Positions 23,037-38,148 are shown, counted from the first letter of the stretch. The stretch is DNA of 64,000 bases from Gammaproteobacteria bacterium (GCA_965243395.1 CBDEUS010000002.1:107444-171443); one strand, 5' to 3'. Program-made: numbers and translations. The notes: generated by a model from the letters alone, not told the origin.

Positions 23037-23056
23037 ATCTCAGTGTCACTTCTTTA

Positions 23057-24386: not shown

Positions 24387-25276
24387 CCTATTAGTTGCAA
24401 ATCATCTCTTAGCACTTCAGCTCTCGGGATTCCGATATTGCTTGCGAGATTTAAATGCTTAAGAATTTGGATAACTCTCCATCCTGGATCACATTGACCT
24501 TTTTCAATGCCAATTTGGGCAGATTCTGGAAATGCATGATGATTGTTGTGCCAACATTCCCCATAGGTGGCAACGCCCAGTCCAGGAATATTAGATGCTT
24601 GAACATATGCATCTTTAACCCGCCAATTACCAGGCCCGGGATTGTGACAAAAGTACGTGATTGTCCAGTGACCAACTACGCTGACGGACACTCTTACAAA
24701 TACACCCCATACAACCCAAGACCAACCTCCAAATAAATATAAAGGAACCGCTAAAAGTAGTTGGTGGAATCTCCAGGTTTTCTCCATAAATACAAACCAT
24801 GGATCCTCAGCAATCTCTTTTTCAATGATTATTTTTGGAGGCTTTGCATAGTTAAATTTAGATGTTAACTGCCACCAAATATCTAAAAAGAAATTTCTTC
24901 GATGGGAGAAAAAGTCATGACACTCATTTTGTCGTTGCGCCCAATCCCTTTGATCATGAATACGAATAACGCCAAACGGACCTGCCATGCCAACCAAAAC
25001 CCCAACATATACAAGTAGTCTTGATGCCCACTTAGGAGATTCAAACGTTCTATGAATAAGTAAGCGATGCATTCCAACACTATGCCCAATTAGAAGAGAA
25101 AAGTAAGTTGTCACAACAAATAGTGTAAAAGCACTCCAAGTGAAAGTGATGGGGGCTAATATCACTGCTAGCAATATCATTGATAAATTCCAAGCAGCTT
25201 TTTTAGAATCGATACTAATAGTTCCCTCATTAGCTGAAGCATGTGTAGCCTTAATTCTTAAAACTGGTTTCATCAT
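24383..25276 (-). CDS. membrane fatty-acid desaturase-like His-box protein (paralog 1)
   Basis: His boxes GMHRLLIHRTF and WHNNHHAFP; canonical HxxHH second box replaced by HDQRDWAQRQNECHDFFSH. Confidence 0.6.
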   Translation of the reverse strand: MMKPVLRIKATHASANEGTISIDSKKAAWNLSMILLAVILAPITFTWSAFTLFVVTTYFSLLIGHSVGMHRLLIHRTFESPKWASRLLVYVGVLVGMAGPFGVIRIHDQRDWAQRQNECHDFFSHRRNFFLDIWWQLTSKFNYAKPPKIIIEKEIAEDPWFVFMEKTWRFHQLLLAVPLYLFGGWSWVVWGVFVRVSVSVVGHWTITYFCHNPGPGNWRVKDAYVQASNIPGLGVATYGECWHNNHHAFPESAQIGIEKGQCDPGWRVIQILKHLNLASNIGIPRAEVLRDDLQLIG

Positions 25277-25286
25277 AATCAGTACC

Positions 25287-26267
25287 TCAATTATTTGTAG
25301 CTAATGTTGTCTTGGTGTTATCCAAATCATATTGCCCAGGAAGTTTTCTTTTAGTTATGGATTTAAGTTCTTTTCTTAATGGCATGTCTTCTGGAAGTTT
25401 TATATCCCATACAAGACCAATCTCAGATAAAAACATTAACACCCACCATCCCGGATCAACTTGATCTTCATAAATACCTAATAACGCAGAGCCGGGATAA
25501 GCATGATGATTATTGTGCCAACACTCTCCCATAGTGATCCAACCTGTATATTTAATGTTATATCCTTGAACGGCGGCACCTTCAACTTCCCAATCACGAT
25601 GACCTTCGTTATGTGCAAAGTAACCAATTAACCAATGCCCAGTAACAGAAACACTAACGCGGCAGCAGATGCCCCAAATAACCCAAGAAATACCTCCAAA
25701 ATAGAAAAGTAATATTGCCCACGGTAATTGTTGCAACATCCATGTGTTCTCCATGAATTTATAAACTTTGTCATTTGAAATTCGTGTTTCTGGCTCAAAT
25801 AAAGGTGGGTTATCAAGATTCAAATCACAATGTATTTGCCACCATCCATCTTTAAGAAAACTATTTCCATGACAGAAATAATCATGGCACTCACTTTGTC
25901 GCTGTGCCCAATCTCGTATATCGTGTGTTTTAACCATTCCGATTGGCCCAGCCATTCCTACTAATGTTCCCAAGTGAACAAAAAAATATTCAATCCACTT
26001 AGGACATTCATAACTGTTATGTATTAATCTACGATGCATCCCTAATGAATGCCCTAAACAAAGCGTTGTTGCAGTGAAAATAATAAATACGAAAAAAGCA
26101 CTGAGTGAGAACGTTAAATAGCCACCAACTAATGACGAAACATACATACTTGTAATCCAAATTGATTTTTTGGGTGACCATCTCACTGTTCCATTTATTG
26201 GATTCGCGCCATTCGTATCATTAATTCTTGGCACTCCATTATTTGTATTCATCGTTACACCCCCCAT
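25287..26267 (-). CDS. membrane fatty-acid desaturase-like His-box protein (paralog 2)
   Basis: same boxes: GMHRRLIHNSY, THDIRDWAQRQSECHDYFCH, WHNNHHAYP; tandem paralog. Confidence 0.6.
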   Translation of the reverse strand: MGGVTMNTNNGVPRINDTNGANPINGTVRWSPKKSIWITSMYVSSLVGGYLTFSLSAFFVFIIFTATTLCLGHSLGMHRRLIHNSYECPKWIEYFFVHLGTLVGMAGPIGMVKTHDIRDWAQRQSECHDYFCHGNSFLKDGWWQIHCDLNLDNPPLFEPETRISNDKVYKFMENTWMLQQLPWAILLFYFGGISWVIWGICCRVSVSVTGHWLIGYFAHNEGHRDWEVEGAAVQGYNIKYTGWITMGECWHNNHHAYPGSALLGIYEDQVDPGWWVLMFLSEIGLVWDIKLPEDMPLRKELKSITKRKLPGQYDLDNTKTTLATNN

Positions 26268-27016
26268 TCATTTGTATTAAATTCACGTTTTTTTAAAGGA
26301 AGAATCCACATTTGATAAATAGATGTGAACCACATAAAAGTCGAAGCAGCTGTGTAACCAAAACCACCGATTAAAGTGAACCATGCAAATATTGGAATCC
26401 ATTTAGTAAGCCACCATGACATGACATCTACAATTAAAAACAAGAAAGGTAGAGCGATTGCTGATGCCTTAAGCCAATTAGGAATTCCAACCGCAAAGCT
26501 AAAAATCAATCCTACAAAGAAGAAAATAAATGAAATACCAAACAAATGAATATGTGAAACTCTTGTTAGCGAACCAATAGAAGCACCTTCATCTATTTCG
26601 CTCACAGATTTAACGTTTTCAAACTTAGTAAAGTCTGGTAGTCCAGGTTCTTCATCATGGCAAAAGACACAATTCTTTTGAAAAATAATGTTTATGTTTT
26701 CATTCCAACCTTTTTCTGATGCACCTTCTCTTACCCATTTAATAATTTGTGCGCGATCATGCGATGATGCTTTGTCTTTCATCGAGCCATTTAATTTATT
26801 CTCTAATTTGCTATTTTCACGATTGCCGTAGTAGCTATAGACGATGTCATCTACTGAGACACCAAGCTTTCCATCCGCCATGCCGTGAGTAAGTAAAATT
26901 TGCATTCCTGCCATCAATAACCCCAAACCTATCGCTAATAAATAACCAGTAAATAGCACACGAACGGATAGTGCTAATGATGGTAGATTCATATACTCGC
27001 CATATTTGGTCTTCAT
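26255..27016 (-). CDS. membrane protein with a single CxxCH haem-c motif
   Basis: 253 aa; N-terminal TM, CVFCH motif, C-terminal TM bundle; overlaps desaturase paralog 2 start. Confidence 0.5.
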   Translation of the reverse strand: MKTKYGEYMNLPSLALSVRVLFTGYLLAIGLGLLMAGMQILLTHGMADGKLGVSVDDIVYSYYGNRENSKLENKLNGSMKDKASSHDRAQIIKWVREGASEKGWNENINIIFQKNCVFCHDEEPGLPDFTKFENVKSVSEIDEGASIGSLTRVSHIHLFGISFIFFFVGLIFSFAVGIPNWLKASAIALPFLFLIVDVMSWWLTKWIPIFAWFTLIGGFGYTAASTFMWFTSIYQMWILPLKKREFNTNEWGV

Positions 27017-27186
27017 ATTCTTCCCTTAAAAAATGAGATCTATTAGTTAATAAACTGTGTTCAGCAGGAAGATTAGGGGGCAAACAAGGAAATAACTTCC
27101 CGCTTTATAGAGAAGGAATAGAAATAAAATTTACTGTTGAAAACCAGTAAGTTAGATAATTACTGGTTTATAAAATAGGAATGTAA

Positions 27187-28200
27187 TTAGTCAGATTCTA
27201 GGTTTTTTCTGTAGTTTCCTGGGGACATCCCAGTAATTTCACGAAATGCCGAGTAGAAGTTGGACTGGGACTTAAACCCGTTTGCTAAGCCTACAGAAAG
27301 TACTGATGCATTAGGCTCATTGGTTAGCATATTTTTAGCCTCAGTAACGCGTCTTTCTCTTATGAATCGAGGAAATCCACAGTCATATTGTGTATTGATT
27401 AATTCAGATAATTGATGACTATTAATATCGAGCATTTCTGCAAGCATGCTTAAACTTAGGTTCTCATTTTGATAAACCTTGTCATCATTCATAAGTTTTT
27501 CTAAAGAAGCACGCACAGATTCAACATTGATGCCTCCTAAAGTAGATTTTGCGTAGGCAGCTTCCGTAATTTCAACAATGTCACTTAGCAATTCAGGAAA
27601 GATAATTACCGATGCTGTAACTAATAACATTGCAATCCCTATTGAAGAGGCATATGCGCCAAAAAAGATTGTGTGGTTTATATAAGGCACAGATAAACCG
27701 AGTATCAAAGCTAACAAAGCCATCAACGCAAACAACAAACCAAAGAATATTTCAAATTTGAAACGACTACTCTGAGGGCGTAATTGGAAAATAATTCTTG
27801 CAATCCAAAATGTATATCCTGTTCCAATTAAAAAAGCGATTACCGGAATTATTTTTACAGGAAGAAATAAACCTATAGCGACTGGCACAAAGTGAAGAAT
27901 ATGATAGATGCTTAGCTTCGATTCCGGGAATAAAACTACTCGACTGAAAAAATAAAACGTCATTGGAACAAAAAGCAATAAATATAAATATCCACGATTA
28001 TTGAGTAAATCAGTATCGTTGGAAAAATATAGATAATGCCAAAATTGCAAACCAGAAAGAGAAATCAGCAATGCAACACAAGACAACTTGCTGATGAAGT
28101 TCTTCCTAATATTTGGGAGAAAAAATAAATATGAAAAAAGAAGAATAACTGCGCTGAATATAGAAAACCCAGCTATCAATTGTACAAATGTAGATACCAT
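27187..28200 (-). CDS. AraC-family transcriptional regulator with N-terminal 6-7 TM domain
   Basis: C-terminal AraC HTH (SQSNFYSAFREITGMSPGNYR); N-terminal 200 aa hydrophobic. Confidence 0.7.
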   Translation of the reverse strand: MVSTFVQLIAGFSIFSAVILLFSYLFFLPNIRKNFISKLSCVALLISLSGLQFWHYLYFSNDTDLLNNRGYLYLLLFVPMTFYFFSRVVLFPESKLSIYHILHFVPVAIGLFLPVKIIPVIAFLIGTGYTFWIARIIFQLRPQSSRFKFEIFFGLLFALMALLALILGLSVPYINHTIFFGAYASSIGIAMLLVTASVIIFPELLSDIVEITEAAYAKSTLGGINVESVRASLEKLMNDDKVYQNENLSLSMLAEMLDINSHQLSELINTQYDCGFPRFIRERRVTEAKNMLTNEPNASVLSVGLANGFKSQSNFYSAFREITGMSPGNYRKNLESD

Positions 28201-28368
28201 CTTATTGTTCTTGTGCCCCAGCTAAATATACATCTACATTCTATATGTGATTAGCCGACATGTATTCATCGGATCAATAAATTTAAGCCAAATAAAAACA
28301 GTAGATTACGATTTATATGACTCTTGTTTGAATAATATCCACCGTACTTCCACCAAAGTATTGATTAT

Positions 28369-29151
28369 CTATACCCAAGTGCTATTCAAGGTATCCCTAA
28401 AATAGTTATTTAAACCCTCAGCTTCAGCCTCAGAGCTTTTTTGAGCAAATTTTGTGTCCTCTAATCGATTTAATTCAGATTCAATAAACTCATTTAGTAC
28501 TGTAATCTTTTCTGAAGTATCTTTCTCAAATCCAGATTTTTTTCGCTCTAGCAAGTTATTTATGGCACTAAGAAGCTTATTGTCATCAACTAACTTTTCT
28601 ATTAGTTTGGAAAATTCAGTGGGCACCACGCCATAATCATTTTCTATCCATTGCACTGCTAATAATGGGCGAAGAACATAAAAATATTTTTTTAAACGAA
28701 CTTGTTCTTTCTGCAAATGCTCTTTATATGTTCTTTTAGCCATACTTAAATAATGATAGGCGCATGAAACTGGTGAAAAACTTTTTGGGAGTAAGTTTTG
28801 AAACCCATCAGAAAATTTTTCCTTATCTTTATAGACAATAGGAGACCCTATCCACTCAATCAAAGGTGGATTAGATTTTCGTAACAATCCGAGTGCCTTT
28901 CTCAGATCCCAACCATTTATATCAAGCAAATCATCTATAGGTAATTCGATCACATCTCTTTTGTGTTCAAGATCAATAGATAGATACCACTCAGGTGGAT
29001 GTATATAAATAAAACGTACGTCAAAATCACTATCTTTAGATGCAAACCCCCACGCTCGACTACCCGATTCACAGGCATACAAAACTTGAACATTATATTC
29101 ATCTTCAATTTCATCAAGCTTTTGAAGGATCTCTTCTTTTCTTTCTATCAT
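28369..29151 (-). CDS. Pol-beta-superfamily nucleotidyltransferase (RtcB-associated RlaP-like family)
   Basis: GS...D.D motif in CESGSRAWGFASKDSDFDVRFIY; ~260 aa; operonic with rtcB. Confidence 0.5.
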   Translation of the reverse strand: MIERKEEILQKLDEIEDEYNVQVLYACESGSRAWGFASKDSDFDVRFIYIHPPEWYLSIDLEHKRDVIELPIDDLLDINGWDLRKALGLLRKSNPPLIEWIGSPIVYKDKEKFSDGFQNLLPKSFSPVSCAYHYLSMAKRTYKEHLQKEQVRLKKYFYVLRPLLAVQWIENDYGVVPTEFSKLIEKLVDDNKLLSAINNLLERKKSGFEKDTSEKITVLNEFIESELNRLEDTKFAQKSSEAEAEGLNNYFRDTLNSTWV

Positions 29152-29159
29152 AGGTATAT

Positions 29160-29459
29160 CTAGAAAAAAGTTTTAACAGTTAAAACTATTCCTAAGATTG
29201 GTAGCAATAAAAGCCAAATAATAAATATAGTGGCAATTAATATATTAGCTAAATACGAAGACTCCACTCCTTCGTCTTCCCAATCTTCATCTGCACAAAT
29301 TACAGATACAAAATCTGAATTAAACTCAACATTAGAATGTTTATTATCAATTGCGATATCAATCGCATCTTTTAGTAACATTAAACCATCCTTATTGCCT
29401 GCAATATTATCTTCATATCTTTCACTGTAAATTTTTACCCAAGCTGTTTCATTATACAT
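29160..29459 (-). CDS. hypothetical protein with C-terminal membrane anchor
   Basis: 99 aa, acidic N-terminal part, single C-terminal TM; between the nucleotidyltransferase and rtcB. Confidence 0.4.
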   Translation of the reverse strand: MYNETAWVKIYSERYEDNIAGNKDGLMLLKDAIDIAIDNKHSNVEFNSDFVSVICADEDWEDEGVESSYLANILIATIFIIWLLLLPILGIVLTVKTFF

Positions 29460-29473
29460 TCAACTACTCCTAA

Positions 29474-30670
29474 CTATCCTTTTACACATACAACTTGACG
29501 CAAAGTGTGTTCAACGCTTACTAAATCATTTTGGTTTTCCATCACCACATCAATATCTTTATATGCGCCAGGAATTTCATCTAACACACCTTTGTCTTTA
29601 CGACATTCAACACCAGCCGTTTGCGCTTCAATATCTTCTTCATTGAAATGGCGTTTTGCTTTACCACGACTCATACGTCGACCTGCACCATGCGAACATG
29701 AACTAAATGATTCAGGGTTACCTTTGCCACGAACAATGTAAGATTTAGCGCCCATACTACCCGGAATAATTCCAAGCTCATCCACACCAGCACGAATCGC
29801 ACCTTTGCGTGTAATGTAAACATTTTCACCAAAATGGTTTTCCATAGACACATAATTATGATGACAATTGATGGCTTCTTTAGTGATACCAAATTTCGGT
29901 AACACTTTTTTTAATGCATCAATTATCAAGCGCATCATTTCTTTGCGATTTTCCATTGCGTAATCTTGAGCCCAGTTCACTGCATTTACATAGTCATCAA
30001 AGTGCTCTGCCCCTTCAGTAAAATATGCTAAATCTTTATCTGGCAAATTATGAATATGCTTTTGCATATCTTTTTGTGCTAATCGAATAAAGAATTGGCC
30101 AATAATATTCCCTACTCCACGGCTACCCGAATGAAGCATAATCCATACATCATTATTTTCATCTAAACAGATTTCAATAAAATGATTCCCACCACCAAGT
30201 GTGCCTAGTTGACGCACCCAAGTTTGATAAGGCTTTTTCTGCATCTTTAAAAGTTTGGGGTGTTTTTCTAGTAAGCGATCTAAACCGTCAGATAAAGGTC
30301 GTATAGTTGAATTGCGAGCTTTATCTGACTTATGCATATCAAAACCAACAGGTATTGCAACTTCAATAGCAGTACGCACTTTGCGTAAGTTATCTGGAAG
30401 ATCATTAGCATTCATTGAAAGACGCAAAGCATTCATTCCACAACCAATGTCTACACCAACCGCAGCAGGAATAATTGCACCTTTACATGGAATTACCGAA
30501 CCCACAGTCGCACCTTTACCAAAGTGCACATCCGGCATCGCCGCAATATGACTATGGATAAAAGGCAACTGTGATAGGTTGCATAGTTGCTGGTAGGCTT
30601 CGTGCTCTATGTCATCAGTATAGATTTTTACTCGCACATTACCTTTGGTAATGACTTTTTTAATTGGCAT
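29474..30670 (-). CDS. rtcB: RNA-splicing ligase RtcB
   Basis: 398 aa with RtcB metal/GTP-binding His motifs (HNYVSMENHFGENVYITRKGA, GSMGAKSYIV, SCSHGAGR). Confidence 0.85.
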   Translation of the reverse strand: MPIKKVITKGNVRVKIYTDDIEHEAYQQLCNLSQLPFIHSHIAAMPDVHFGKGATVGSVIPCKGAIIPAAVGVDIGCGMNALRLSMNANDLPDNLRKVRTAIEVAIPVGFDMHKSDKARNSTIRPLSDGLDRLLEKHPKLLKMQKKPYQTWVRQLGTLGGGNHFIEICLDENNDVWIMLHSGSRGVGNIIGQFFIRLAQKDMQKHIHNLPDKDLAYFTEGAEHFDDYVNAVNWAQDYAMENRKEMMRLIIDALKKVLPKFGITKEAINCHHNYVSMENHFGENVYITRKGAIRAGVDELGIIPGSMGAKSYIVRGKGNPESFSSCSHGAGRRMSRGKAKRHFNEEDIEAQTAGVECRKDKGVLDEIPGAYKDIDVVMENQNDLVSVEHTLRQVVCVKG

Positions 30671-30718
30671 ATGTCACCCTAATTAATCTCTAAAATATTC
30701 ATTTCTATTAGAACCATC

Positions 30719-30884
30719 ATGTCGCTTTTTCTTCAAGCAACAATTCTTGAAATCTACGCCCTGATCCACATACACATGGATCATTCCGGCCGAACTTCTC
30801 GCTAAGTTCTTTATTGCCATGAACGATTCTATTTCCTCGTTTAACGTTTGTTTCTGATGGGAATCCTTTACGACGTTTACTCAT
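30719..30884 (-). pseudogene. small SEC-C-motif-like ORF, apparently frameshifted
   Basis: minus strand: [55 protein letters not shown]; the +1 frame after CGSGRR reads [13 protein letters not shown], completing CxCGSG...K.CC only with a frameshift. Confidence 0.25.
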
Positions 30885-30950
30885 ACGCTCAAAAGGATTG
30901 ATCCTTATTTTTAAATTTACACATGTTGCACCTCACATTACTAAACTAAA

Positions 30951-31337
30951 TCAGTTGTATTTTTTGCGATAGTTACTGGTAAAAGGTTGCGCAACAATTT
31001 GATAATCATCTTGATAGCGTATCCTTCCAATTTCCTCACATTTAATCATATCTACAGCAATACCTTTATTTTGTATTACAGAAAAGAGCTTCCACATAAC
31101 GCGTATATGCTCTTGTGCACTAGGTTTAAACCAACACAGGCAGCGATAGTTACCGGGTATCTTCAAAATAGGAGGCACAATTAAATTTCTATCAATCCAT
31201 CTAAACACATATTGAACTTCTTCATATTCATAATCAGTGAATGAATTGTTGTATTTTAGCTTGTACGCAAGATGTATTAGGCCTTGTTCATAACGTGACC
31301 TCCTGTCTTGGCACAGCCCAATAAATCGTAAGTACAT
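30951..31337 (-). CDS. hypothetical protein
   Basis: 128-aa ORF upstream of the SPFH gene. Confidence 0.4.
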   Translation of the reverse strand: MYLRFIGLCQDRRSRYEQGLIHLAYKLKYNNSFTDYEYEEVQYVFRWIDRNLIVPPILKIPGNYRCLCWFKPSAQEHIRVMWKLFSVIQNKGIAVDMIKCEEIGRIRYQDDYQIVAQPFTSNYRKKYN

Positions 31338-31426
31338 TTTTAATATCCATTTATATTATTTCTCAAATTTAATTAAATGACGCAGGCCCTCAAATAATAG
31401 AGGGCCTTTGTCAGTTTATACTCACG

Positions 31427-32575
31427 CTACCCATCAACTTTGATTTGTACCGTGTCTTTTAGGATGCCATCCAAACCTCCGAAGACAGTTAGTTTGTCTA
31501 CTTTGTCAGTGACTTTTTCCAACGTCTCCAACTCTTTCAAGCGCATCAAGGTTGGGTTGTCATCCATCAATTTCGCAGTGTTCAACAATGAACGTGTAGC
31601 TGCAGTTTCTTCACGTCTTTTAATGACATTTGCTTGCGCCACTTTTTCTGCTTGAACTACTTGGTTCAAGATATCTTTCATGTCGCCTGGCAAAATGACA
31701 TCTTTCACGCCAACGCTGCGAATTTCGATACCGTATTCAGATACGTTTGCTTTAACAGATTCGTAGACGTATTTGTCTAGTTCATCTTTAGTTACAAGCA
31801 ATGCATCCAAAGTGCGTGTACCAATTACCTGACGAAGTGCAAATTGCATTTCGCGGTAAATGTATCCAGCAAGGTCTACCAATTCATGACGCGCTTTAAT
31901 TGGGTCACGAATTTGATATTGAGCTGACAAGTTTGCACGTAGGCTAACTTTGTCTTTTGTCAAAACCTCTTGACCTTGCACTTCCATGCTTTGCATTCGC
32001 AAATCAACTTGTTCAACTATTACGTTGCGGTTGTATTTCCAGTATGCGTACAAGCCTGGTTGCAATGATTCTTTTAATTCACCATCCACAACCAATAGGC
32101 CAACATAGTTGTCTGCAACTTCTGCGATGTAAATTGAATTAATCAATTCACTTGGTACTTGTTTCGCACGTGTGTGCACAAACTGACCCACTTTATTTGC
32201 AGGCAATGCAAAATCTTCTGCAATATTTTGCACTTCAACTGTCATTTCAACTGGACCTTTCCAAAATAATTGGCGTGTACCAGGTGCTACAACAGTGCTC
32301 AATTGGCCACGTTGATAAACCAATCCAACTTCATATGCGTCGGTTTCAACAACTTGGAAGTATTTTGTTACTATCTCAGGTTGTTCTTTTACCAAGACAT
32401 CCACATATTTGTGGTTGAATTGCGCTTCCGTTACATCATAAATCTCGACTTGAATTCGGCCGAAAATATCGAAATATCGATATACGCCTGGTTCAAGCAC
32501 TTTTACAATGCTTCGGTTTTTCAAGTAAATTCCTCGCTCATGCTGCGCAATAACAATTCTTTTAAATCCGAACAT
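31427..32575 (-). CDS. SPFH/band-7 domain protein (soluble, no N-terminal TM)
   Basis: 382 aa; SPFH core then coiled-coil with DVILPGDMKDILNQVVQAEKVAQANVIKRREETAATR. Confidence 0.65.
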   Translation of the reverse strand: MFGFKRIVIAQHERGIYLKNRSIVKVLEPGVYRYFDIFGRIQVEIYDVTEAQFNHKYVDVLVKEQPEIVTKYFQVVETDAYEVGLVYQRGQLSTVVAPGTRQLFWKGPVEMTVEVQNIAEDFALPANKVGQFVHTRAKQVPSELINSIYIAEVADNYVGLLVVDGELKESLQPGLYAYWKYNRNVIVEQVDLRMQSMEVQGQEVLTKDKVSLRANLSAQYQIRDPIKARHELVDLAGYIYREMQFALRQVIGTRTLDALLVTKDELDKYVYESVKANVSEYGIEIRSVGVKDVILPGDMKDILNQVVQAEKVAQANVIKRREETAATRSLLNTAKLMDDNPTLMRLKELETLEKVTDKVDKLTVFGGLDGILKDTVQIKVDG

Positions 32576-32724
32576 AATTACTCCTTATTAAATAAAGTTT
32601 CGGGAAATGCTCCACATATAAATTGCGGGTAAACTCCTGTTGTAGTAACGGGTCTAAAATCTTTCGCATGTCATTGCGATACCCCAACTATCGCTTTGAA
32701 CATGTTTCAGTCTCTAGACTGGTT

Positions 32725-32740
32725 ATCACAAGCTTGTGAT
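32725..32740. promoter_or_regulatory. 16-bp perfect palindrome ATCACAAGCTTGTGAT upstream of the SPFH gene
   Basis: self-complementary 16-mer ~150 nt upstream of the SPFH start codon. Confidence 0.3.
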
Positions 32741-32836
32741 CACGCAGGCAATCTACATGTTGCGACATAAAAAACTCTCAACCGTAGTTGAGCTATTTGA
32801 AATGTCGCGGGAACATTTCCCTGGTTAGTGTTTTCA

Positions 32837-32895
32837 CACAAAATGCGGATTCGAACCGCAGGCTTTCGCCATTACCAATGAACAACGTTTAAAGT
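32837..32895 (-). other. tRNA-like remnant (T-arm TGCGG-ATTCGAA-CCGCA) without a foldable anticodon arm
   Basis: clear T-arm; downstream sequence does not form anticodon or D arms. Confidence 0.25.
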
Positions 32896-32897
32896 TG

Positions 32898-32969
32898 TCG
32901 AAAGAACAGGAATCGAACCTGCAACATTTCCGTTATCAGCGGAATGCTCTCCCTTTGAGCTATCTTTCA
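32898..32969 (-). tRNA. tRNA-Ile (anticodon GAU), CCA not encoded
   Basis: minus-strand cloverleaf: T-arm ACAGG-AATCGAA-CCTGC, anticodon arm TTCCG/TTATCAG/CGGAA (anticodon GAT), D-arm GCTC...GAGC. Confidence 0.55.
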
Positions 32970-33193
32970 CTGGTGTATCGGACCACTTACAACTTTGTAT
33001 ACACATTGCAATCACCTTTCGGCTTAGCTTTTGTGCACAGGTCTGAATTCAAGAATCAGATCCGCTAAGTAAATAAATGTCTCTCAATACTCATGAACTC
33101 AATGTTTATAAAACATCGAATTACAATTCTTTAAATACAGGTGACCTGCCCCATTGCAGGCCACCATTTTTCACGCCCCCTTTCTCCTAAAAT

Positions 33194-33760
33194 TTAACGT
33201 CGCTCTTTAGGACATTGTGTTTTCAAGAACGCCATTTGGTCTGCCAAAATTTTGCGGTTAGATAAAATCAATCCTTCTGCATAATTTGGCTCATATGGAA
33301 TTCCTAATAATGAAATTCCTATTCTTTCTGCCTCACTAGGCATTAAGCTATCTTTACGTGCATTACATGCACGGCATGCTGTAACCACATTCATCCATGT
33401 GTTTTTCCCACCACGTGATAGTGGAATCACATGATCGCGCGTTAAGCGATTTCGAGAATATTGATCACCGCAATACATGCACATGTAATCATCACGTCGA
33501 AACAATCTTGCATTTGTCAGTGCAGGCACTTCACGAATGTGGTCGTCTGATCGCATCACACCATGTGTTGCAACAATACTGTTCACATCAATAAATGAAC
33601 GAGTTCTTGTTCTGCGATTTACACCACCATGAATACGAAAAGAATTTGAACCCATTTCGTAAACAACTTGTTCTCGTGCATACACTAATGCTGCATATTC
33701 CCAGTTCATCCATTCAACTGGACGCCCAGCTACGTCTAAACGCAAAATTAAATTTTCCAT
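33194..33760 (-). CDS. HNH endonuclease (free-standing, within tRNA array)
   Basis: CMYCGDQYSRNRLTRDHVIPLSRGGKNTWMNVVTACRACNARK = HNH C-x2-C...H...N...C-x2-C motif. Confidence 0.8.
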   Translation of the reverse strand: MENLILRLDVAGRPVEWMNWEYAALVYAREQVVYEMGSNSFRIHGGVNRRTRTRSFIDVNSIVATHGVMRSDDHIREVPALTNARLFRRDDYMCMYCGDQYSRNRLTRDHVIPLSRGGKNTWMNVVTACRACNARKDSLMPSEAERIGISLLGIPYEPNYAEGLILSNRKILADQMAFLKTQCPKERR

Positions 33761-33820
33761 TTAACTTTTCTCTTTTATAAAGTTACTGTTTAACAATTTG
33801 GATGATTGAAGAGTTTAATT

Positions 33821-33897
33821 TGGTACGCAGCCCCAGATTTGAACTGGGAATCAAGTAGGTTTGAGCTACTCAGGTCTTCCAATTGCCTCAGCTGCGC
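33821..33897 (-). tRNA. class-I (77 nt) tRNA with Leu anticodon CAA
   Basis: TGG-T-acceptor ACGCAGC, T-arm CCCAG-ATTTGAA-CTGGG, 5-nt variable loop, anticodon arm AGTAG/GTTTGAG/CTACT (anticodon CAA, U33 A37), D-loop with GG, A73. Confidence 0.6.
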
Positions 33898-33909
33898 AAA
33901 AATTTAATT

Positions 33910-33986
33910 TGGTATCCCTGGCAAGATTCGAACTTGCAACATTCTGGTTTTAAGTCAGATGCGTCTTCCGGTTGCGCCACAGGGAC
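33910..33986 (-). tRNA. class-I (77 nt) tRNA with Leu anticodon UAA
   Basis: T-arm GCAAG-ATTCGAA-CTTGC, 5-nt variable loop, anticodon arm TCTGG/TTTTAAG/TCAGA (anticodon TAA), A73. Confidence 0.6.
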
Positions 33987-33997
33987 GTAATGTAATT

Positions 33998-34076
33998 TGG
34001 TAGCCACCCTCGGATTTGAACCGAGATGCACCATGTTCTAAGCATGGTAGGTATGCCAATTCCCGTCAGATGGCCA
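33998..34076 (-). tRNA. class-I (79 nt) tRNA with Leu anticodon UAG
   Basis: T-arm CTCGG-ATTTGAA-CCGAG, 5-nt variable loop, anticodon arm CCATG/TTCTAAG/CATGG (anticodon TAG); acceptor closes with two G-U pairs. Confidence 0.55.
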
Positions 34077-34118
34077 AAATTTTTATTTTTATAATTTAGT
34101 TATACATAAATTATGATT

Positions 34119-34193
34119 TGGTACCCCTAGTAAGATTCGAACTCACATCAACTGATTTAGAAGATCAGTGCTTTTCCAATTAAGCTATAGAGG
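34119..34193 (-). tRNA. tRNA-Arg (UCU)
   Basis: T-arm GTAAG-ATTCGAA-CTCAC, anticodon arm CTGAT/TTAGAAG/ATCAG. Confidence 0.65.
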
Positions 34194-34217
34194 TAAAAAA
34201 CTAATTGAATTATTTTT

Positions 34218-34313
34218 GGTACCCCAACCAAGATTCGAACTTGGATCTACCACTAATCTGGTGCGTGAATCACGGGATATAAATCCGCTGCTTTACCGTT
34301 AAGCTATTGGGGC
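34218..34313 (-). tRNA. 96-nt tRNA-like gene with intact acceptor, T and D arms but no canonical anticodon arm
   Basis: acceptor ACCCCAA/TTGGGGC, T-arm CCAAG-ATTCGAA-CTTGG, D-arm GCTT-TACCGTT-AAGC; 61 nt between T and D arms with only a CGTGA-A-TCACG mini-hairpin; best weak fold gives anticodon UAU. Confidence 0.4.
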
Positions 34314-34322
34314 AAAATTTTT

Positions 34323-34396
34323 TGGACACTCCGCTCAGAATTGAACTGAGTCCTCAAGGGTTGCAACCTTGCGTCTTGCCGATCGACCACGGAGTG
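34323..34396 (-). tRNA. tRNA-Cys (GCA)
   Basis: T-arm CTCAG-AATTGAA-CTGAG, anticodon arm CAAGG/GTTGCAA/CCTTG, U73 discriminator. Confidence 0.7.
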
Positions 34397-34472
34397 TTGG
34401 CACATCCGGAAAGATTTGAACTTTCATCTTTGGGTTTGGAGGCCAATGTTCTGCCAATTGAACTACAGATGC
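34397..34472 (-). tRNA. tRNA-Trp (CCA)
   Basis: T-arm GAAAG-ATTTGAA-CTTTC, anticodon loop TTTGGAG (anticodon CCA), D-arm GTTC-TGCCAATT-GAAC. Confidence 0.65.
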
Positions 34473-34474
34473 TC

Positions 34475-34550
34475 TGGCTGGGAGTCCTGGACTCGAACCA
34501 AGATCTCAAGAGTCAAAGTCTTGCGTCTTAACCAGTTAGACGAATTCCCA
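34475..34550 (-). tRNA. tRNA-Gln (UUG)
   Basis: T-arm CCTGG-ACTCGAA-CCAAG, anticodon arm CAAGA/GTCAAAG/TCTTG. Confidence 0.7.
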
Positions 34551-34559
34551 TTTTTGTTT

Positions 34560-34635
34560 TGGCGCGGTTGGAAAGACTCAAACTTTCATCTTCGACTTTC
34601 GTAGAGTCGTGCTTTATCCGATTAAGCTACAACCG
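34560..34635 (-). tRNA. tRNA-Arg (ACG)
   Basis: T-arm GAAAG-ACTCAAA-CTTTC, anticodon arm CGACT/TTCGTAG/AGTCG, acceptor GCGGTTG/CAACCGC. Confidence 0.7.
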
Positions 34636-34644
34636 CAAAAACTT

Positions 34645-34720
34645 TGGTAGCCCGAATCCGATTCGAACGGATAACTTTCGCTTTGTAAGAACGACACTCT
34701 GCCAATTGAGTTATCGGGCT
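34645..34720 (-). tRNA. tRNA-Val (UAC)
   Basis: T-arm ATCCG-ATTCGAA-CGGAT, anticodon loop TTGTAAG, acceptor AGCCCGA/TCGGGCT. Confidence 0.65.
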
Positions 34721-34728
34721 AAAATTTT

Positions 34729-34800
34729 TGGTAGTTACGGTTAGAATCGAACTAACAAGTCCAGGGTTATGAGCCCTAGCCGAAGACCACTTCCGTAACT
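34729..34800 (-). tRNA. tRNA-Met (CAU), initiator-like anticodon stem, shortened D-arm
   Basis: RNA anticodon arm TAGGG-CTCATAA-CCCTG (GGG/CCC stem as in initiators); only 12 nt between anticodon arm and acceptor (4-bp stem, 4-nt loop); total 72 nt. Confidence 0.5.
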
Positions 34801-34808
34801 AAAGTATT

Positions 34809-34882
34809 TGGTGGATCCAGTAGGAGTCGAACCTACCTCTGCGGGTTAAAAGCCCGCTGCACAACCGCTATGCCATAGATCC
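34809..34882 (-). tRNA. tRNA-Lys (UUU)
   Basis: T-arm GTAGG-AGTCGAA-CCTAC, anticodon arm GCGGG/TTAAAAG/CCCGC. Confidence 0.7.
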
Positions 34883-34883
34883 T

Positions 34884-34959
34884 TGGCACGCCTGAAAGGA
34901 GTTGAACCTTTATCTCACTGGTTCGAAGCCAGTGGCTCTTCCAATTAAGCTACAGACGT
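34884..34959 (-). tRNA. tRNA-Arg (UCG)
   Basis: T-arm AAAGG-AGTTGAA-CCTTT, anticodon arm ACTGG/TTCGAAG/CCAGT. Confidence 0.65.
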
Positions 34960-34961
34960 AT

Positions 34962-35052
34962 TGGCGGAGAAGAACAGATTCGAACTGTTGAATGAAAAAT
35001 TTCCATCCCTCCTTTAGCAAAGGAGTGCTTTAAACCACTCAGCCACTTCTCC
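34962..35052 (-). tRNA. tRNA-Ser (GCU), class II
   Basis: 91 nt; T-arm AACAG-ATTCGAA-CTGTT, 19-nt variable arm, anticodon arm CTCCT/TTAGCAA/AGGAG. Confidence 0.7.
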
Positions 35053-35112
35053 AATTTATAATTTGCAGCGCTTCGCGATATTTAATTTGCGAGTAATACC
35101 CACTCGCAAGCG

Positions 35113-35188
35113 TGGGGTGAACTACCGGACTCGAACCGGTATCTACCAGATTCACGTTCTGGGGCTTTGCCATTAAGCTAAGCTCACC
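35113..35188 (-). tRNA. tRNA-His (GUG) with encoded G-1 and C73
   Basis: T-arm ACCGG-ACTCGAA-CCGGT, anticodon arm CCAGA/TTCACGT/TCTGG (anticodon GTG, position 33 = C), C73, extra 5' G at 35188. Confidence 0.65.
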
Positions 35189-35199
35189 ATAATTATTTT

Positions 35200-35291
35200 T
35201 GGCGGAAGGCGGAGGGCACGATCCCCACCAACTAAAAAGCCAGCCACCAGTTTTCAAGACTGGGACACCCCCACTGGGTGAATCACCTTCC
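35200..35291 (-). tRNA. tRNA-Ser (UGA), class II, non-canonical T-loop
   Basis: 92 nt; anticodon arm CCAGT/TTTCAAG/ACTGG; T-loop reads GCACGAT rather than ATTCGAA. Confidence 0.5.
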
Positions 35292-35316
35292 TTATATATG
35301 TAAATTTGGAGCGGAT

Positions 35317-35391
35317 AATCGGATTCGAACCGATATTTATGGTTTGGAAGACCATCACTCTGCCAATTGAGTTATACCCGCAGATTTGGTC
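35317..35391 (-). tRNA. tRNA-Gly (UCC)
   Basis: T-arm ATCGG-ATTCGAA-CCGAT, anticodon arm ATGGT/TTGGAAG/ACCAT. Confidence 0.7.
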
Positions 35392-35396
35392 TGAGT

Positions 35397-35474
35397 GGCT
35401 GGATTCGAACCAACGACCTCTCGCTTCCAAGGCGAGTACTCTGCCCAGGCTGAGCTACACTCAGAGAATTAATT
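35397..35474 (-). tRNA. tRNA-Pro (UGG)
   Basis: T-arm GCTGG-ATTCGAA-CCAAC, anticodon arm CTCGC/TTCCAAG/GCGAG, acceptor CTGAGTG/CACTCAG. Confidence 0.65.
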
Positions 35475-35491
35475 AAATATAAAAAATTATT

Positions 35492-35567
35492 TGGTGCATC
35501 GAGTTGGACTTGAACCAACGACCACACGATTATCGGTCGTGCGCTCTACCAACTGAGCTATCGATGC
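35492..35567 (-). tRNA. tRNA-Ile (GAU)
   Basis: canonical D-arm GCTCTACCAACTGAGC, T-arm GTTGG-ACTTGAA-CCAAC, anticodon arm CACGA/TTATCGG/TCGTG (anticodon GAT, position 33 = C), acceptor GCATCGA/TCGATGC. Confidence 0.7.
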
Positions 35568-35568
35568 T

Positions 35569-35644
35569 TGGTGTTCCTGACCAGAATTGAACTGGCATCT
35601 CGAGTTTGAAAGACTCGTGACCTCACCATTAGTCGACAGGAACT
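35569..35644 (-). tRNA. tRNA-Glu (UUC)
   Basis: anticodon arm CGAGT/TTGAAAG/ACTCG, acceptor GTTCCTG/CAGGAAC. Confidence 0.7.
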
Positions 35645-35657
35645 AATAAAATATTTT

Positions 35658-35733
35658 TGGCGGACCCGATCGGACTCAAACCGACATCCCCTTTATCGAC
35701 AGTAAAGTGCTTTATCAATTAAGCTACGAATCC
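35658..35733 (-). tRNA. tRNA-Asp (GUC)
   Basis: anticodon arm CTTTA/TCGACAG/TAAAG, T-arm ATCGG-ACTCAAA-CCGAC. Confidence 0.65.
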
Positions 35734-36088
35734 AACTTTTGTTTAAAGGTTGAGACTATGCCTTTAAAAATCACTCTTTTGTTGAAGTACCTAACGCATT
35801 GCTGTGCGATAGTTGCCAACGTGTCCACATTACCCTGGTTGCTCCAGCGATTATGTTAGTGATCATGACTGCTTTTTTTAAAGTGTAGCGATTCACTTGT
35901 CGCGTTAATCTATTCAGCTATTCACTTACCGAGAACCTTGCCAGGCTCTAAACGGAGGCTATCCGAACGTGCAATGAAGTAACTAAAGTTCTTTGGCTTG
36001 CGACCGCAGAATCTTCCATGTTCCCAAGTGGGCATGGACTTAAGTCATTTTCAATTAACACCGAGACGCGTCTTTGCGTTTCACCGTA
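35734..36088 (-). other. 355-nt non-coding spacer inside the tRNA array; candidate structured or stable RNA
   Basis: no minus-strand ORF, no recognisable tRNA; short palindromes AGACGCGTCT and TGATCA. Confidence 0.25.
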
Positions 36089-36165
36089 TGGTGATCTATG
36101 TGGGAGTCGAACCCACGACCTATTGATTCTAAGTCAATCGCTCTACCAATCTGAGCTAAAAGATC
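36089..36165 (-). tRNA. class-I (77 nt) tRNA with Leu anticodon UAG (second copy)
   Basis: T-arm GTGGG-AGTCGAA-CCCAC, 5-nt variable loop, anticodon arm ATTGA/TTCTAAG/TCAAT (anticodon TAG), canonical D-arm, A73. Confidence 0.6.
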
Positions 36166-36605
36166 AGGTACTACTAAGACGTGCACGTCTCAGTTGCTTC
36201 ATTATTTTTTGAATAACGAAATACAACACGCCTTTTGTCTTTCCTCTGCCGAGTACTTAACCGAATATTCGGATCATGGCTTCCACCCATTTCCCTAATA
36301 ATCTGCACAACCGCACTTGTCTGCAAAACTCGTACTATGTTGTACTACCTGTTATCTCTCGTAGTACGCAATCTAGTATCACGGGTTACAGCACTACCTG
36401 TATCTTTCTCACGACCCGTATTCCCAAGTAAACCTGGTACGTCAATCGTGGTACTTCCGCGTATTGCTTGGCTACTATTGCCGATTGAATTACGACAACA
36501 TGGAGACCAGGCTTGCTTGGTTTGACCTACTTTGAAAAGTGGGCGAAATACCGTAGTCGTATTCCTTTCCTATCGTTGCCGATAGTTATCGTGCCAAGCC
36601 ACATA
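36166..36605 (-). other. 440-nt non-coding spacer inside the tRNA array; candidate ncRNA
   Basis: no minus-strand ORF; 14-bp perfect palindrome AGACGTGCACGTCT at 36176-36189; + strand ORFs here are antisense and implausible. Confidence 0.25.
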
Positions 36606-36681
36606 TTTGGTGGAGGATCACGGATTTGAACCGTGCGCCTTCTGTTTGCAATACAGACGCTCTGCCAACTGAGCTAATCCC
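36606..36681 (-). tRNA. tRNA-Ala (UGC) with G3:U70
   Basis: anticodon arm TCTGT/TTGCAAT/ACAGA; acceptor strands GGGGGAT/ATCCTCC give the G3:U70 Ala identity pair. Confidence 0.75.
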
Positions 36682-36690
36682 CCAAACTTA

Positions 36691-36765
36691 TTTGGCTGCG
36701 ACGGTTGGACTCGAACCAACATTGCTTCGCTTAACAGACGAATGTTCTACCATTGAACTACATCG
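36691..36765 (-). tRNA. tRNA-Asn (GUU)
   Basis: anticodon arm TTCGC/TTAACAG/ACGAA, T-arm GTTGG-ACTCGAA-CCAAC. Confidence 0.65.
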
Positions 36766-36775
36766 CAATTATATT

Positions 36776-36852
36776 TGGTGCATCAGGATGGATTCGAACC
36801 ACCATCGCGTCGGGCTTCAACCGACCGCTCTACCCATTGGAGCTACCGATGC
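36776..36852 (-). tRNA. tRNA-Phe (GAA); sequence differs from the att-site Phe fragments
   Basis: anticodon arm GTCGG/GCTTCAA/CCGAC, D-arm GCTCTACCCATTGGAGC; its T-arm and acceptor differ from the 14005/47417 repeats. Confidence 0.7.
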
Positions 36853-36860
36853 AAAAATAA

Positions 36861-36945
36861 TTGGTGGAGAGAGATGGATTCGAACCACCACGCTAATAAT
36901 TAGCACTGGGTTACAGCCAGCGTGTCTCACCAATGACTGTCTCTC
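36861..36945 (-). tRNA. tRNA-Tyr (GUA), class II
   Basis: 85 nt; 15-nt variable hairpin ACGCTAATAATTAGC; anticodon arm ACTGG/GTTACAG/CCAGC. Confidence 0.65.
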
Positions 36946-36959
36946 CTAAAGTTAAAACT

Positions 36960-37035
36960 GGAGCTGGTGATAGGCGTCGAACCTACAACCTACTGCTTAC
37001 AAAGCAGTTGCTCTGCCATTTGAGCTACACCAGCA
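36960..37035 (-). tRNA. tRNA-Thr (UGU)
   Basis: anticodon arm ACTGC/TTACAAA/GCAGT, acceptor GCTGGTG/CACCAGC. Confidence 0.7.
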
Positions 37036-37039
37036 AAAA

Positions 37040-37075
37040 ATATGGGACAGTCGCACATGCGCACAACTCAACTTA
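37040..37075 (-). promoter_or_regulatory. candidate sigma-70 promoter for the tRNA array
   Basis: minus strand reads TTGTGC-N18-TATTTT about 7 nt upstream of the first tRNA 5' end; weak match. Confidence 0.25.
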
Positions 37076-37161
37076 GGAGTTGGGCATAATTTAAAAATTA
37101 AATTACGCACTGCCCCGCCTACTTCAATCATCCAAATTGTTAAAGAGCTACTGCCAGGACT

Positions 37162-37494: not shown

Positions 37495-38148
37495 TTAATC
37501 CTCAAGGGCTGACAAAAAAGAAATCATTGCTTTACGTTGTTTTTCATTTAAAGAGAGTGATGCAGAAATTATTTCTTGAATGTCCGTTAATTGTTTTTGA
37601 AATTCTTTATTGTTCAATTCTTTAGGTGCTTCATCCAACCAACCTACTGGTTTTTTTGCTGCAACTTCAATTCCTCTTGCAAACTCATCACTCATGCTTG
37701 GAATAAATGGTGTTTTGTAATGTTGTTGAAATAATTCCCATGATACTCCTGCTGATTCACATTCTTTTTTAGAACAAACCTTATTACCAGACTTTCCACA
37801 TAGGGTCTTAAAGTTTGTAAATCTAACGATTTGAAGAAATGGGTCTAAGTTTTTTACAGGAGCAGTGCCAAATAATAACCAATTGGTGGAATATCCAGTA
37901 ACTTTGCTAATACCTTCAATGATTTTTAAATTTGGGTTTTGTGGAGCCGACGTTTCGTAAAGAGAAAGAAGTTGTTTTGACACCTTTAGTCTTCTTTTTT
38001 TCAATAATTGCATCATCTCACTTGGATCAATGCCATTAACTACACGTGCAAAACGCACCCTTGATGAAACTGTAGCTAATTCATTTTTTCGTTTTGAACT
38101 ACTAGTTGATTTTTTGGAGACACGACGTTTAGATTTATTTTTTACCAT
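37495..38148 (-). CDS. hypothetical protein with strongly basic N-terminus
   Basis: 217 aa; N-terminal MVKNKSKRRVSKKSTSSSKRKNE; no recognisable domain. Confidence 0.45.
   Translation of the reverse strand: MVKNKSKRRVSKKSTSSSKRKNELATVSSRVRFARVVNGIDPSEMMQLLKKRRLKVSKQLLSLYETSAPQNPNLKIIEGISKVTGYSTNWLLFGTAPVKNLDPFLQIVRFTNFKTLCGKSGNKVCSKKECESAGVSWELFQQHYKTPFIPSMSDEFARGIEVAAKKPVGWLDEAPKELNNKEFQKQLTDIQEIISASLSLNEKQRKAMISFLSALED

Follow-up and report, generated by a model that had tools for sequence, protein, structure and literature searches.

A recurrent tRNA-array cassette with GOLLD RNA and an RtcB ligase in a gammaproteobacterial chromosome, apparently joined secondarily to a p99-RlaP gene pair and carrying a predicted +1 frameshift in its SEC-C gene

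Operons for RNA repair that combine the ligase RtcB with the nucleotidyltransferase RlaP are reportedly treated by Burroughs & Aravind 2016, and Mycobacterium tRNA arrays containing an HNH endonuclease gene and GOLLD, an RNA cage of 14 subunits, are said to be the subject of Morgado et al. 2020. In Pseudomonas, RlaP is located in rtcB operons, adds one or two nucleoside monophosphates to damaged RNA 3'-OH ends and has been proposed to undo "smart" ribotoxins such as RloC, which remove a base after the cut (PMC12776372). A 26-gene trn array, the HNH gene all8564, rtcB and a slipin gene are co-repressed by TrcR in Anabaena PCC 7120 and induced by translational stress (PMC8421152, PMC10272220), the figures for the TrcR regulon being 77-fold for rtcB and 42-fold for slipin alr0740 (PMC10272220). 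Behra et al. 2019 (PMC6582537) place GOLLD in a large Mycobacterium tRNA array with an HNH gene in or beside it. Islands of GOLLD and tRNAs have been described as typical of phages and prophages (PMC12286853), and phages pair tRNAs with RNA ligases and RlaP (PMC7824862). The hypothesis that such genes furnish spare tRNAs and re-ligate cut ones is already in print, both for the phage tRNA/ligase/RlaP sets (PMC7824862) and for the long Anabaena array with rtcB (PMC8421152, PMC10272220). The locus described here lies in 64,000 nucleotides (nt) of DNA from a Gammaproteobacteria bacterium (GCA_965243395.1 CBDEUS010000002.1:107444-171443; this whole stretch is called the window). It is best explained, with reasonable though far from complete confidence, as a composite of two blocks that would act together in a translation-damage response: a recurrent tRNA-array cassette ending in RtcB, and a chromosomal p99-RlaP pair that now follows it. 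The gene immediately ahead of RtcB, encoding a SEC-C zinc knuckle, very probably needs a +1 frameshift for its full-length product.

From 38148 down to 28369 on the minus strand, every gene of the window is co-oriented, as judged from the list of open reading frames (ORFs), the tRNA scan and Pfam. The order is p217, the array with GOLLD, HNH, a tRNA, SPFH, p128, SEC-C, RtcB, p99 and RlaP, and the features, with lengths in amino acids (aa) and the evidence for each, are these:

37495..38148, minus strand: p217, putative cassette regulator of 217 aa at the head of the array (weak PHROG matches)
37122..37145 (left) and 33788..33811 (right), no strand: 24-nt inverted repeat (CTTTAACAATTTGGATGATTGAAG and its complement) around the main array (conservation in locus L039)
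33821..37034, minus strand: main tRNA array, about 26 co-oriented tRNA genes with CCA encoded (ARAGORN, Rfam)
35747..36234, minus strand: GOLLD RNA with a tRNA (36089-36165) in its linker (RF02032)
33194..33760, minus strand: HNH endonuclease of 188 aa at the array end (PF14279, PF01844)
32897..32969, minus strand: single tRNA, anticodon GAU, between HNH and SPFH (ARAGORN, Rfam)
31427..32575, minus strand: SPFH/Band-7 (slipin-like) protein of 382 aa (PF01145, E=8e-28)
30951..31337, minus strand: p128, orphan ORF of 128 aa in a PcfJ-like slot (no family match)
30683..30884, minus strand: SEC-C zinc-knuckle gene, very probably read with a +1 frameshift (PF02810)
29474..30670, minus strand: RtcB RNA ligase of 398 aa, terminal cassette gene (PF01139)
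29160..29459, minus strand: p99, tail-anchored membrane protein of 99 aa from a small uncharacterised family (AlphaFold model, HMMER)
28369..29151, minus strand: RlaP-family Pol-beta nucleotidyltransferase of 260 aa (PF10127)

An earlier note on this DNA had read the last three of these genes as an RNA-repair operon beside a complete tRNA set. The ORF list confirms all three at these positions on the minus strand, and Pfam and an AlphaFold model agree with the identities then given, namely RtcB (PF01139), a tail-anchored small protein and an RlaP-type nucleotidyltransferase (PF10127). GOLLD, the HNH endonuclease, the SPFH gene and the frameshifted SEC-C gene did not figure in that note.

The cassette occupies about 8.6 kb (window about 29478-38115), with RtcB as its last gene, and it recurs at unrelated sites in genomes of other Gammaproteobacteria assembled from metagenomes. 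In the closest comparison locus, L039 (RtcB 97% identical), the same series is found: p217, 25 tRNAs recognised by ARAGORN in the same order, GOLLD, HNH, tRNA, SPFH, a 476-aa PcfJ-like gene, SEC-C and RtcB, beyond which lies an unrelated decarboxylase gene on the other strand. The DNA of the two loci is 92-93% identical over 38115-29478, the sole break being the PcfJ gene in place of p128. L041 (RtcB 85%) has 20 tRNAs, GOLLD, HNH, tRNA, SPFH, PcfJ, a 316-aa gene, SEC-C and RtcB, after which comes a gene for 700 aa; L053 (RtcB 90%) has p217, 12 tRNAs divided by an IS element, HNH, SEC-C and RtcB; and L054 (RtcB 86%) retains two tRNAs, SPFH, SEC-C and RtcB. Each of these four copies lies in different chromosomal surroundings. 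Long arrays (L-arrays) have been characterised by at least 20 close, co-oriented, non-periodic tRNA genes (PMC8421152), of which the window has 25 to about 29 on one strand; silence during normal growth and induction under translational stress are further marks of them; the horizontal spread and homing-type HNH associated with L-arrays are likewise found here, the cassette standing at 92-93% DNA identity in the different context of L039. No DNA nearly identical to window 28000-38000 was found in plasmid and phage collections, and an exact-sequence look-up returned no record for p99 or RtcB of the window.

The earlier note took RtcB, p99 and RlaP to be one inherited operon, and this did not survive comparison. 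In all six loci with close RtcB genes (L039, L040, L041, L053, L054 and L055) the DNA homology with the window ends at 29466-29478, which is the RtcB stop codon, and neither RlaP nor p99 is present in any of them. The closest relative of the flank, the 6.9-kb contig L001 (CBDCUI010000005.1), matches the window from 29452, the start of p99, downstream, with 83% DNA identity over p99-RlaP and 90% over the AraC-type regulator gene and the desaturase genes. In L001 the 23 nt just ahead of p100 read as an ORF whose product ends FKNIKD, to be compared with the RtcB terminus VCVKG, so that a different gene appears from the sequence to precede the p99-RlaP counterpart there. Since homology to the cassette ends at the RtcB stop and the L001 match begins at p99, the joint between RtcB and p99-RlaP is read as a recombination junction inside the 14-nt spacer. 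The p99-RlaP pair, by this comparison, would have been joined secondarily to a horizontally moving, recurrent cassette; two separately inherited blocks, one being the array cassette with RtcB and the other p99-RlaP of the chromosomal flank, are a probable part of the best explanation taken as a whole.

Though of recent assembly on this reading, the three genes are arranged as if to be transcribed together. RtcB and p99 are separated by 14 nt and p99 and RlaP by 8 nt, a pattern scan revealed no terminator-like site in either spacer, and AGGAG lies 8 nt ahead of the p99 ATG; the tight spacing and the spacers free of terminator-like sites were counted in favour of co-transcription. The two weak hairpin matches given by the scan are both intragenic, at 30582-30565 in RtcB and at 29352-29367 in p99, the latter on the opposite strand.

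RlaP matches PF10127 at E=2.9e-96 with 322.4 bits (cut-off 23) over model positions 2-249 of 249, scores 280 bits against phrog_14344 and has the Pol-beta signature at G30-S31 and D42-x-D44. The earlier note had left room for a CD-NTase or an aminoglycoside nucleotidyltransferase; both are ruled out, PF10127 covering the protein at full length and being the only nucleotidyltransferase family to score in Pfam. A sequence search found no solved structure of a relative. Genome and metagenome scans gave L001 as the closest RlaP (86% identical); the relatives next to it are at 56% or less, all others, partial metagenome matches included, are at 67% or less and without an array, and no metagenome relative of either RlaP or p99 exceeded 67% partial identity.

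The p99 family comprises about 25 representatives, each of about 100 aa, in a full HMMER search, and has no assignment in Pfam, NCBIfam, PADLOC or PHROG. A family-based AlphaFold (AF2) model with pLDDT 92.8 consists of a small N-terminal alpha/beta domain and a single C-terminal transmembrane helix, 69-98; with this one C-terminal membrane helix, the label "tail-anchored" is right. The fold has no significant neighbour among solved structures.

In the proposed mechanism, the trigger would be translation damage, with tRNA or rRNA cut by anticodon nucleases or toxins or affected by ribosome-targeting stress, and the cassette would supply extra tRNAs. By analogy with known enzymes, RtcB would reseal RNA halves by joining 2',3'-cyclic phosphate or 3'-phosphate ends to 5'-OH ends, and RlaP, probably co-transcribed behind it, would extend 3'-OH ends from which bases are missing by one or two nucleotides, in the way of its Pseudomonas relative; p99 may or may not have a part. 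The strongest argument for such a response is that the window holds the stress gene set of Anabaena as one cassette.

Several points have to be set against this. RlaP starts 322 nt downstream of the RtcB stop on the same strand, and both this link and the three-gene string RtcB-p99-RlaP are confined to this genome, which belongs to an organism known only from a metagenome assembly. The products of RlaP end in 3'-OH and are not ligatable by RtcB, a mismatch flagged by the RlaP authors themselves (PMC12776372). Among 16 more distant RlaP loci from the genome scan, RtcB was found by tblastn only in L011 (other ligase families were checked in eight of the 16), and Bacillales RlaP genes appear to stand alone. 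The p99 homologue in L058, the sole context seen for one, is accompanied by a thioesterase and a rhomboid protease with no RNA-repair neighbours. No PADLOC defence model matched RtcB, p99, RlaP, SPFH, p128 or p217, and the HNH and SEC-C proteins gave only generic domain matches. Lastly, RtcB is tied to the array in L039, L041 and L053 and, as a remnant, in L054, whereas L040 (RtcB 88%) and L055 (82%) have RtcB without one, so that this comparison, by which the earlier note meant its reading to be judged, points in both directions.

Much of this would be expected if the adjacency of RtcB and RlaP were an accident of the landing site, with RlaP and p99 acting alone, perhaps with the AraC-type regulator and the membrane/lipid genes, and contributing nothing to what RtcB does: the blocks have separate histories that meet in a 14-nt spacer, RlaP is absent from all six close RtcB loci, and the end chemistries do not fit. 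Nevertheless, the shared orientation, the 14-nt gap and the preserved ribosome-binding site exceed what random insertion usually leaves, RlaP clusters with RNA ligases in print (PMC12776372, PMC7824862), and other RlaP genes lie beside RNA end-processing enzymes, with RtcB in L011, a CCA-adding-like enzyme in L004, and a phosphoesterase and a T4 gp30.3-like gene in L002. Accidental adjacency is considered unlikely, and the composite locus with cooperating RtcB and RlaP is preferred.

RtcB matches PF01139 at E=6.2e-131 with 437.9 bits (cut-off 27) over model positions 1-426 of 426. Its motifs are intact, with GVDIGCG at 72, GGGNHF at 159, LHSGSRG at 179, CHHNY at 269 and SHGAGR at 326, and align with those of the Thermus and Pyrococcus RtcB structures (2epg, 1uc2). 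We take the catalytic residues to be those of the Pyrococcus enzyme, that is, the metal ligands Asp, Cys and three His and the guanylylated His. The protein belongs to the RtcB 3'-phosphate RNA ligases and has their catalytic motifs. Homologues at 77-97% identity number more than 100, mostly from uncultured Gammaproteobacteria in metagenomes, and 8000 sequences of this RtcB clade scored at E<=1e-60. In NCBIfam, the E. coli-type RtcB model NF007153 gives 175.9 against a cut-off of 407. As the earlier note had said, no RtcA or RtcR is present among the neighbours or the larger window ORFs given a Pfam scan, which took in all but the 16 with 110 aa or more in 53251-63976 and some shorter ORFs in other parts. 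With neither gene in the scanned ORFs and NF007153 below its cut-off, this is no rtcBA/rtcR operon of the E. coli type, and by model scores the window RtcB is placed in a different subfamily.

The SEC-C gene that precedes RtcB is split between two frames. Frame 0 runs from 30884 to 30750, ending CVCGSGRRF, and if base 30749 is skipped, the reading continues in the +1 frame from 30748 to 30683; in the ORF list the gene stands as an ORF of 55 aa at 30717-30884. Frame 0 (GRNDPC.CGSGRRF) encodes the first pair of zinc-knuckle cysteines and no more, the second pair lying in the +1 frame together with a conserved tail, K.CCLK...DGS.R..Y.R[DE] followed by the stop. The same split is found in the window, L039, L041, L053 and L054, in a DNA alignment without gaps. 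Pairwise differences at the three codon positions number 80/67/377 upstream, counted in frame 0, and 98/68/160 downstream, counted in the +1 frame, and this switch implies that the coding frame really changes. Sequencing error was considered and rejected, the alignment being gapless over independent assemblies that include the Aliikangiella and Gimesia isolates and the synonymous substitutions supporting the change of frame. The slip site reads UUU UAA G, with a frame-0 stop, in L041, L053, L054, the Aliikangiella coralliicola isolate (L056) and a spirochaete genome (L139), and UUU CAA G in the window and L039, where CAA replaces the stop.

The family has at least 449 members. About 13 of the best 120 are uninterrupted full-length proteins of 64-89 aa, and 60 of the same 120 end at a second site, after CCL..G.F. 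At this site Gimesia fumaroli (L057) has UUU UGA C, with DGVNRDHFFQR in the +1 frame, and a frame switch is seen, at the protein level only, in the high-GC viral contig L059. The predicted +1 frameshift recurs across phyla at two alternative slip sites, and it is very probable that recoding is needed to make the full-length SEC-C protein.

The programmed +1 frameshift site of prfB, the gene for release factor 2, is CUU UGA C. The SEC-C genes resemble it in having a slippery XUU-U codon before a frame-0 stop, with coding conservation that moves to the +1 frame and both frames conserved. They differ in that the gene is not one for a release factor, the predicted slip has two alternative positions, CAA stands for the stop in the window and L039, and there is no clear Shine-Dalgarno-like stimulator upstream. 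No literature joining "SEC-C motif" with "frameshift", or "RtcB" with "SEC-C" and "RNA repair", was found.

In the window, 12 nt lie between the end of the +1 frame, directly ahead of AGGGTG, and the RtcB ATG; the other loci have 11-12 nt here, so that frameshifted ribosomes could be coupled to initiation on RtcB. One possibility, put forward tentatively and rather to be doubted than relied on, is that the slip serves as a sensor of impaired A-site decoding (slow termination, or depleted or cleaved tRNA-Gln) and switches on RtcB translation by this coupling. Were this so, bacteria would have a second +1 frameshift of wide occurrence in cellular genes, and RNA repair a new means of regulation. 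A structure hiding the RtcB ribosome-binding site was also sought, and was not convincing: RNAalifold on five sequences gave weak pairings only, in the form of a 9-bp hairpin after the slip site and a 5-bp long-range pairing.

SEC-C genes of this kind occur elsewhere in the company of RNA repair. In Gimesia, a planctomycete, the gene heads a cluster with an RNA ligase, an HD/kinase protein, Hen1, Pnkp and two RlaP genes. The association is not a constant one, the genes that follow in Aliikangiella and the spirochaete being unrelated or of no known kind, and the Manganitrophus copy having decayed. That copy, which is unannotated, lies at 7001-7135 of the Candidatus Manganitrophus plasmid CP114562.1 (L141), between a tyrosine recombinase and a SIR2/ATPase gene pair; it has an in-frame stop and has lost one cysteine.

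SecA-type zinc knuckles bind ribosomes. With such a knuckle encoded directly upstream of RtcB, and a frameshift at a stop depending on A-site decoding, it might be supposed that the main RtcB substrate is rRNA rather than tRNA, perhaps 16S rRNA cleaved at the decoding centre in the manner known for RtcB2-PrfH, and that the SEC-C protein directs the enzyme to damaged ribosomes or senses them. Two publications (PMC9223846, PMC13166195) present repair by RtcB of ribosomes cut by colicin E3. The RtcB of the window, however, scores 144.6 against a cut-off of 271.8 for the PrfH-linked model TIGR03073 (NCBIfam), Pfam shows no PrfH or other release-factor-like gene among its neighbours, and its physical link is with tRNA genes. 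A mainly ribosomal substrate is considered very unlikely, and the broader translation-damage reading is retained.

The array has 25 tRNA genes in 32790-37034 by ARAGORN at default settings and about 28-29 by relaxed ARAGORN with Rfam, and the 3' CCA is encoded in all that were inspected. Its gene order is that of L039, at 92-93% DNA identity. The single tRNA between HNH and SPFH has counterparts at the same position in L039 (Ile) and L041 (Met). The "complete tRNA set" of the earlier note is better called near-complete: such an array does adjoin RtcB, but for Met there is just an atypical CAU tRNA, located at about 34732-34800. This gene, the sole one of Met type in the array, has a reduced D-arm. 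Other unusual members include four tRNAs with Leu anticodons (CAA, UAA and UAG twice) that are just 77-78 nt long and are without the long variable arm usual for bacterial tRNA-Leu, and a 97-nt tRNA with an ambiguous anticodon, the L053 counterpart of which is Ile-UAU according to ARAGORN; the odd tRNAs are located at 33821-34075, 36089-36165, 34217-34313 and 34732-34800. Downstream of the single tRNA, 32790-32886 contains a T-arm-like hairpin, GCGGTTCGAATCCGC, that relaxed ARAGORN reports as a 97-nt "tRNA-Ser(cga)" and that may be a decayed tRNA or the remnant of an attachment site.

GOLLD scores 153.5 bits against RF02032 (gathering threshold 150, E about 1e-42) over model positions 1-416 of 416, and is found in the same arrangement in L039 (155.8 bits) and L041 (154.8 bits). 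The tRNA in its linker, 36089-36165, looks intact (71 bits). The 373 nt upstream of it, 36235-36607, have neither ORF nor tRNA and may be the variable 5' part of GOLLD. There are no phage genes near this GOLLD, yet the cassette is mobile and has an HNH of homing type.

GOLLD, the tRNAs and the homing-type HNH, islands of the first two being described as typical of phages and prophages, raise the question of whether the cassette could be what is left of a phage or other mobile element, or a satellite to one, with products that serve the element in counter-defence during infection rather than the host in its stress response. Phage protein families give RtcB and RlaP their best, or very high, scores (506 bits for RtcB with phrog_1075, besides the phrog_14344 match of RlaP), and of 20 viral contigs with RtcB at 40-59% identity, seven have tRNAs within 10 kb. 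On the other hand, about 10 kb to the left and right of the cassette are free of phage genes for structure, replication or lysis, the viral RtcB genes (59% identity or less) were not seen with any other cassette protein beside them, and GOLLD is absent from all seven viral loci that have both RtcB and tRNAs. A putative regulator is part of the cassette itself, which in several genomes is set in ordinary chromosomal surroundings. A phage origin of this kind is regarded as quite unlikely, and a role in the host's own response to translation damage continues to be favoured. The viral contig L020 (IMG/VR 3300025853_000035; 151 kb) contains seven tRNAs, a permuted tmRNA and an RtcB gene (54% identical to that of the window) within 11 kb, at 44-732, 5090-5544 and 10001-11164.

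The putative regulator, p217, is weakly similar to phage transcriptional regulator and repressor families (PHROG); it is 96% identical in L039 and 73% in L053, and its gene is followed by a hairpin and T-run. One arm of the 24-nt inverted repeat lies over a possible -35 box upstream of the first tRNA and the other just upstream of HNH. The repeat, which could be a pair of repressor operators or a stem for processing of the precursor, is kept in L039, and both arms are changed in L053. The HNH protein is 100% identical in L039 and has homologues at 36-39% on Burkholderiales megaplasmids; the one copy inspected, in Methylibium RPME01, comes after an array of 27 tRNAs on a megaplasmid that lacks GOLLD, and no RtcB is annotated within 9 kb of it. 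Homologues that match less well are located on Nostoc and Mycobacterium plasmids.

The SPFH protein is 98% identical in L039 and 66-68% in L041 and L054. The slot between SPFH and SEC-C is variable, being filled by the 476-aa PcfJ-like gene in L039 (8279-9709) and L041 and by p128 in the window, and the homology of window and L039 is interrupted exactly there. No family was found for p128 in Pfam, NCBIfam, PADLOC or PHROG, and the suggestion that it is a PcfJ remnant was rejected, there being no similarity. The 316-aa gene is itself mobile, standing ahead of SEC-C in L041 and after RtcB in L054.

The rest of the window is ordinary chromosome, with ABC transporters, a MatE exporter, a histidine kinase, lipid desaturases and hydroxylases and a PspA/YqiJ/flotillin cluster. 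On both sides of the island, at 17039-28200 and 40769-47369, are membrane and lipid genes that include two fatty-acid desaturases, two fatty-acid hydroxylase domains (one fused to a GH3 ligase), two DCC1-like oxidoreductases and that same cluster; the island may perhaps have inserted into a region for membrane stress or lipid remodelling. Outside the cassette, a tRNA-like gene at 52593-52667 on the minus strand (Rfam 45.9 bits) has an 8-nt anticodon loop, read by ARAGORN as a four-base anticodon "cagc", and a tyrosine integrase gene, 47586-48881, lies about 4 kb from it.

Of the interpretation in the earlier note, the gene identities and the adjoining array have stood, and the ancestral operon has not. 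What takes its place bears on several matters. GOLLD and a long array hard-wired to an RNA ligase and an SPFH protein may help to show what arrays and GOLLD are for, and the resemblance to a stress regulon so far known from cyanobacteria alone is suggestive of a conserved response to translation damage, passed from one phylum to another in cassette form. The locus would also be a natural, recently assembled fusion of RtcB and RlaP despite their ill-fitting end chemistries, bearing on how the two might cooperate, and its frameshift-dependent leader gene is a candidate mechanism for sensing damage without RtcR. All three questions, those of arrays and GOLLD, of RlaP-RtcB cooperation and of sensing, can be tested on one compact 10-kb piece of DNA.

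Compared with the RtcB-RlaP(-RtcA) operons of Pseudomonas (PMC12776372), the window likewise has RtcB and a PF10127 RlaP in one co-directional string, with the same proposed roles, RlaP restoring lost 3' nucleotides and the ligase sealing. It differs in having no RtcA or RtcR, in the order RtcB-p99-RlaP with a 99-aa membrane protein in between, in the RtcB subfamily, and in being apparently a recent junction of two blocks seen in this genome only. With Anabaena it shares a horizontally acquired long array of about 26 tRNA genes, an adjacent HNH, rtcB and a slipin/SPFH gene; there, however, the genes are dispersed, the array being on a plasmid and rtcB and slipin on the chromosome, and are linked by their shared repressor alone, whereas here they form one 8.6-kb gammaproteobacterial cassette to which GOLLD and SEC-C are added. 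The Mycobacterium arrays are similar in having GOLLD inside the array, a tRNA-like gene within GOLLD and an HNH in or adjoining it, but belong to another phylum, and the tRNA inside the GOLLD of the window looks intact; the term "RtcB" has no occurrence in the text consulted of the Mycobacterium array paper (PMC6582537). The phage tRNA/ligase/RlaP sets, and the repair by T4 Pnkp and Rnl1 of tRNA-Lys cut by PrrC (PMC7824862, PMC12776372), follow the same logic of replacing, healing and sealing, while the window locus is chromosomal, has no phage genes nearby and lacks a kinase/phosphatase end-healing enzyme. RtcB-RlaP pairs, a regulon of array, HNH, rtcB and slipin, arrays with GOLLD and HNH, and phage sets of tRNAs, ligase and RlaP are thus already known; what appears to be new is the union of all these parts in a single cassette of a gammaproteobacterium, together with the RlaP-p99 pair secondarily captured behind RtcB and a leader gene that is frameshifted.

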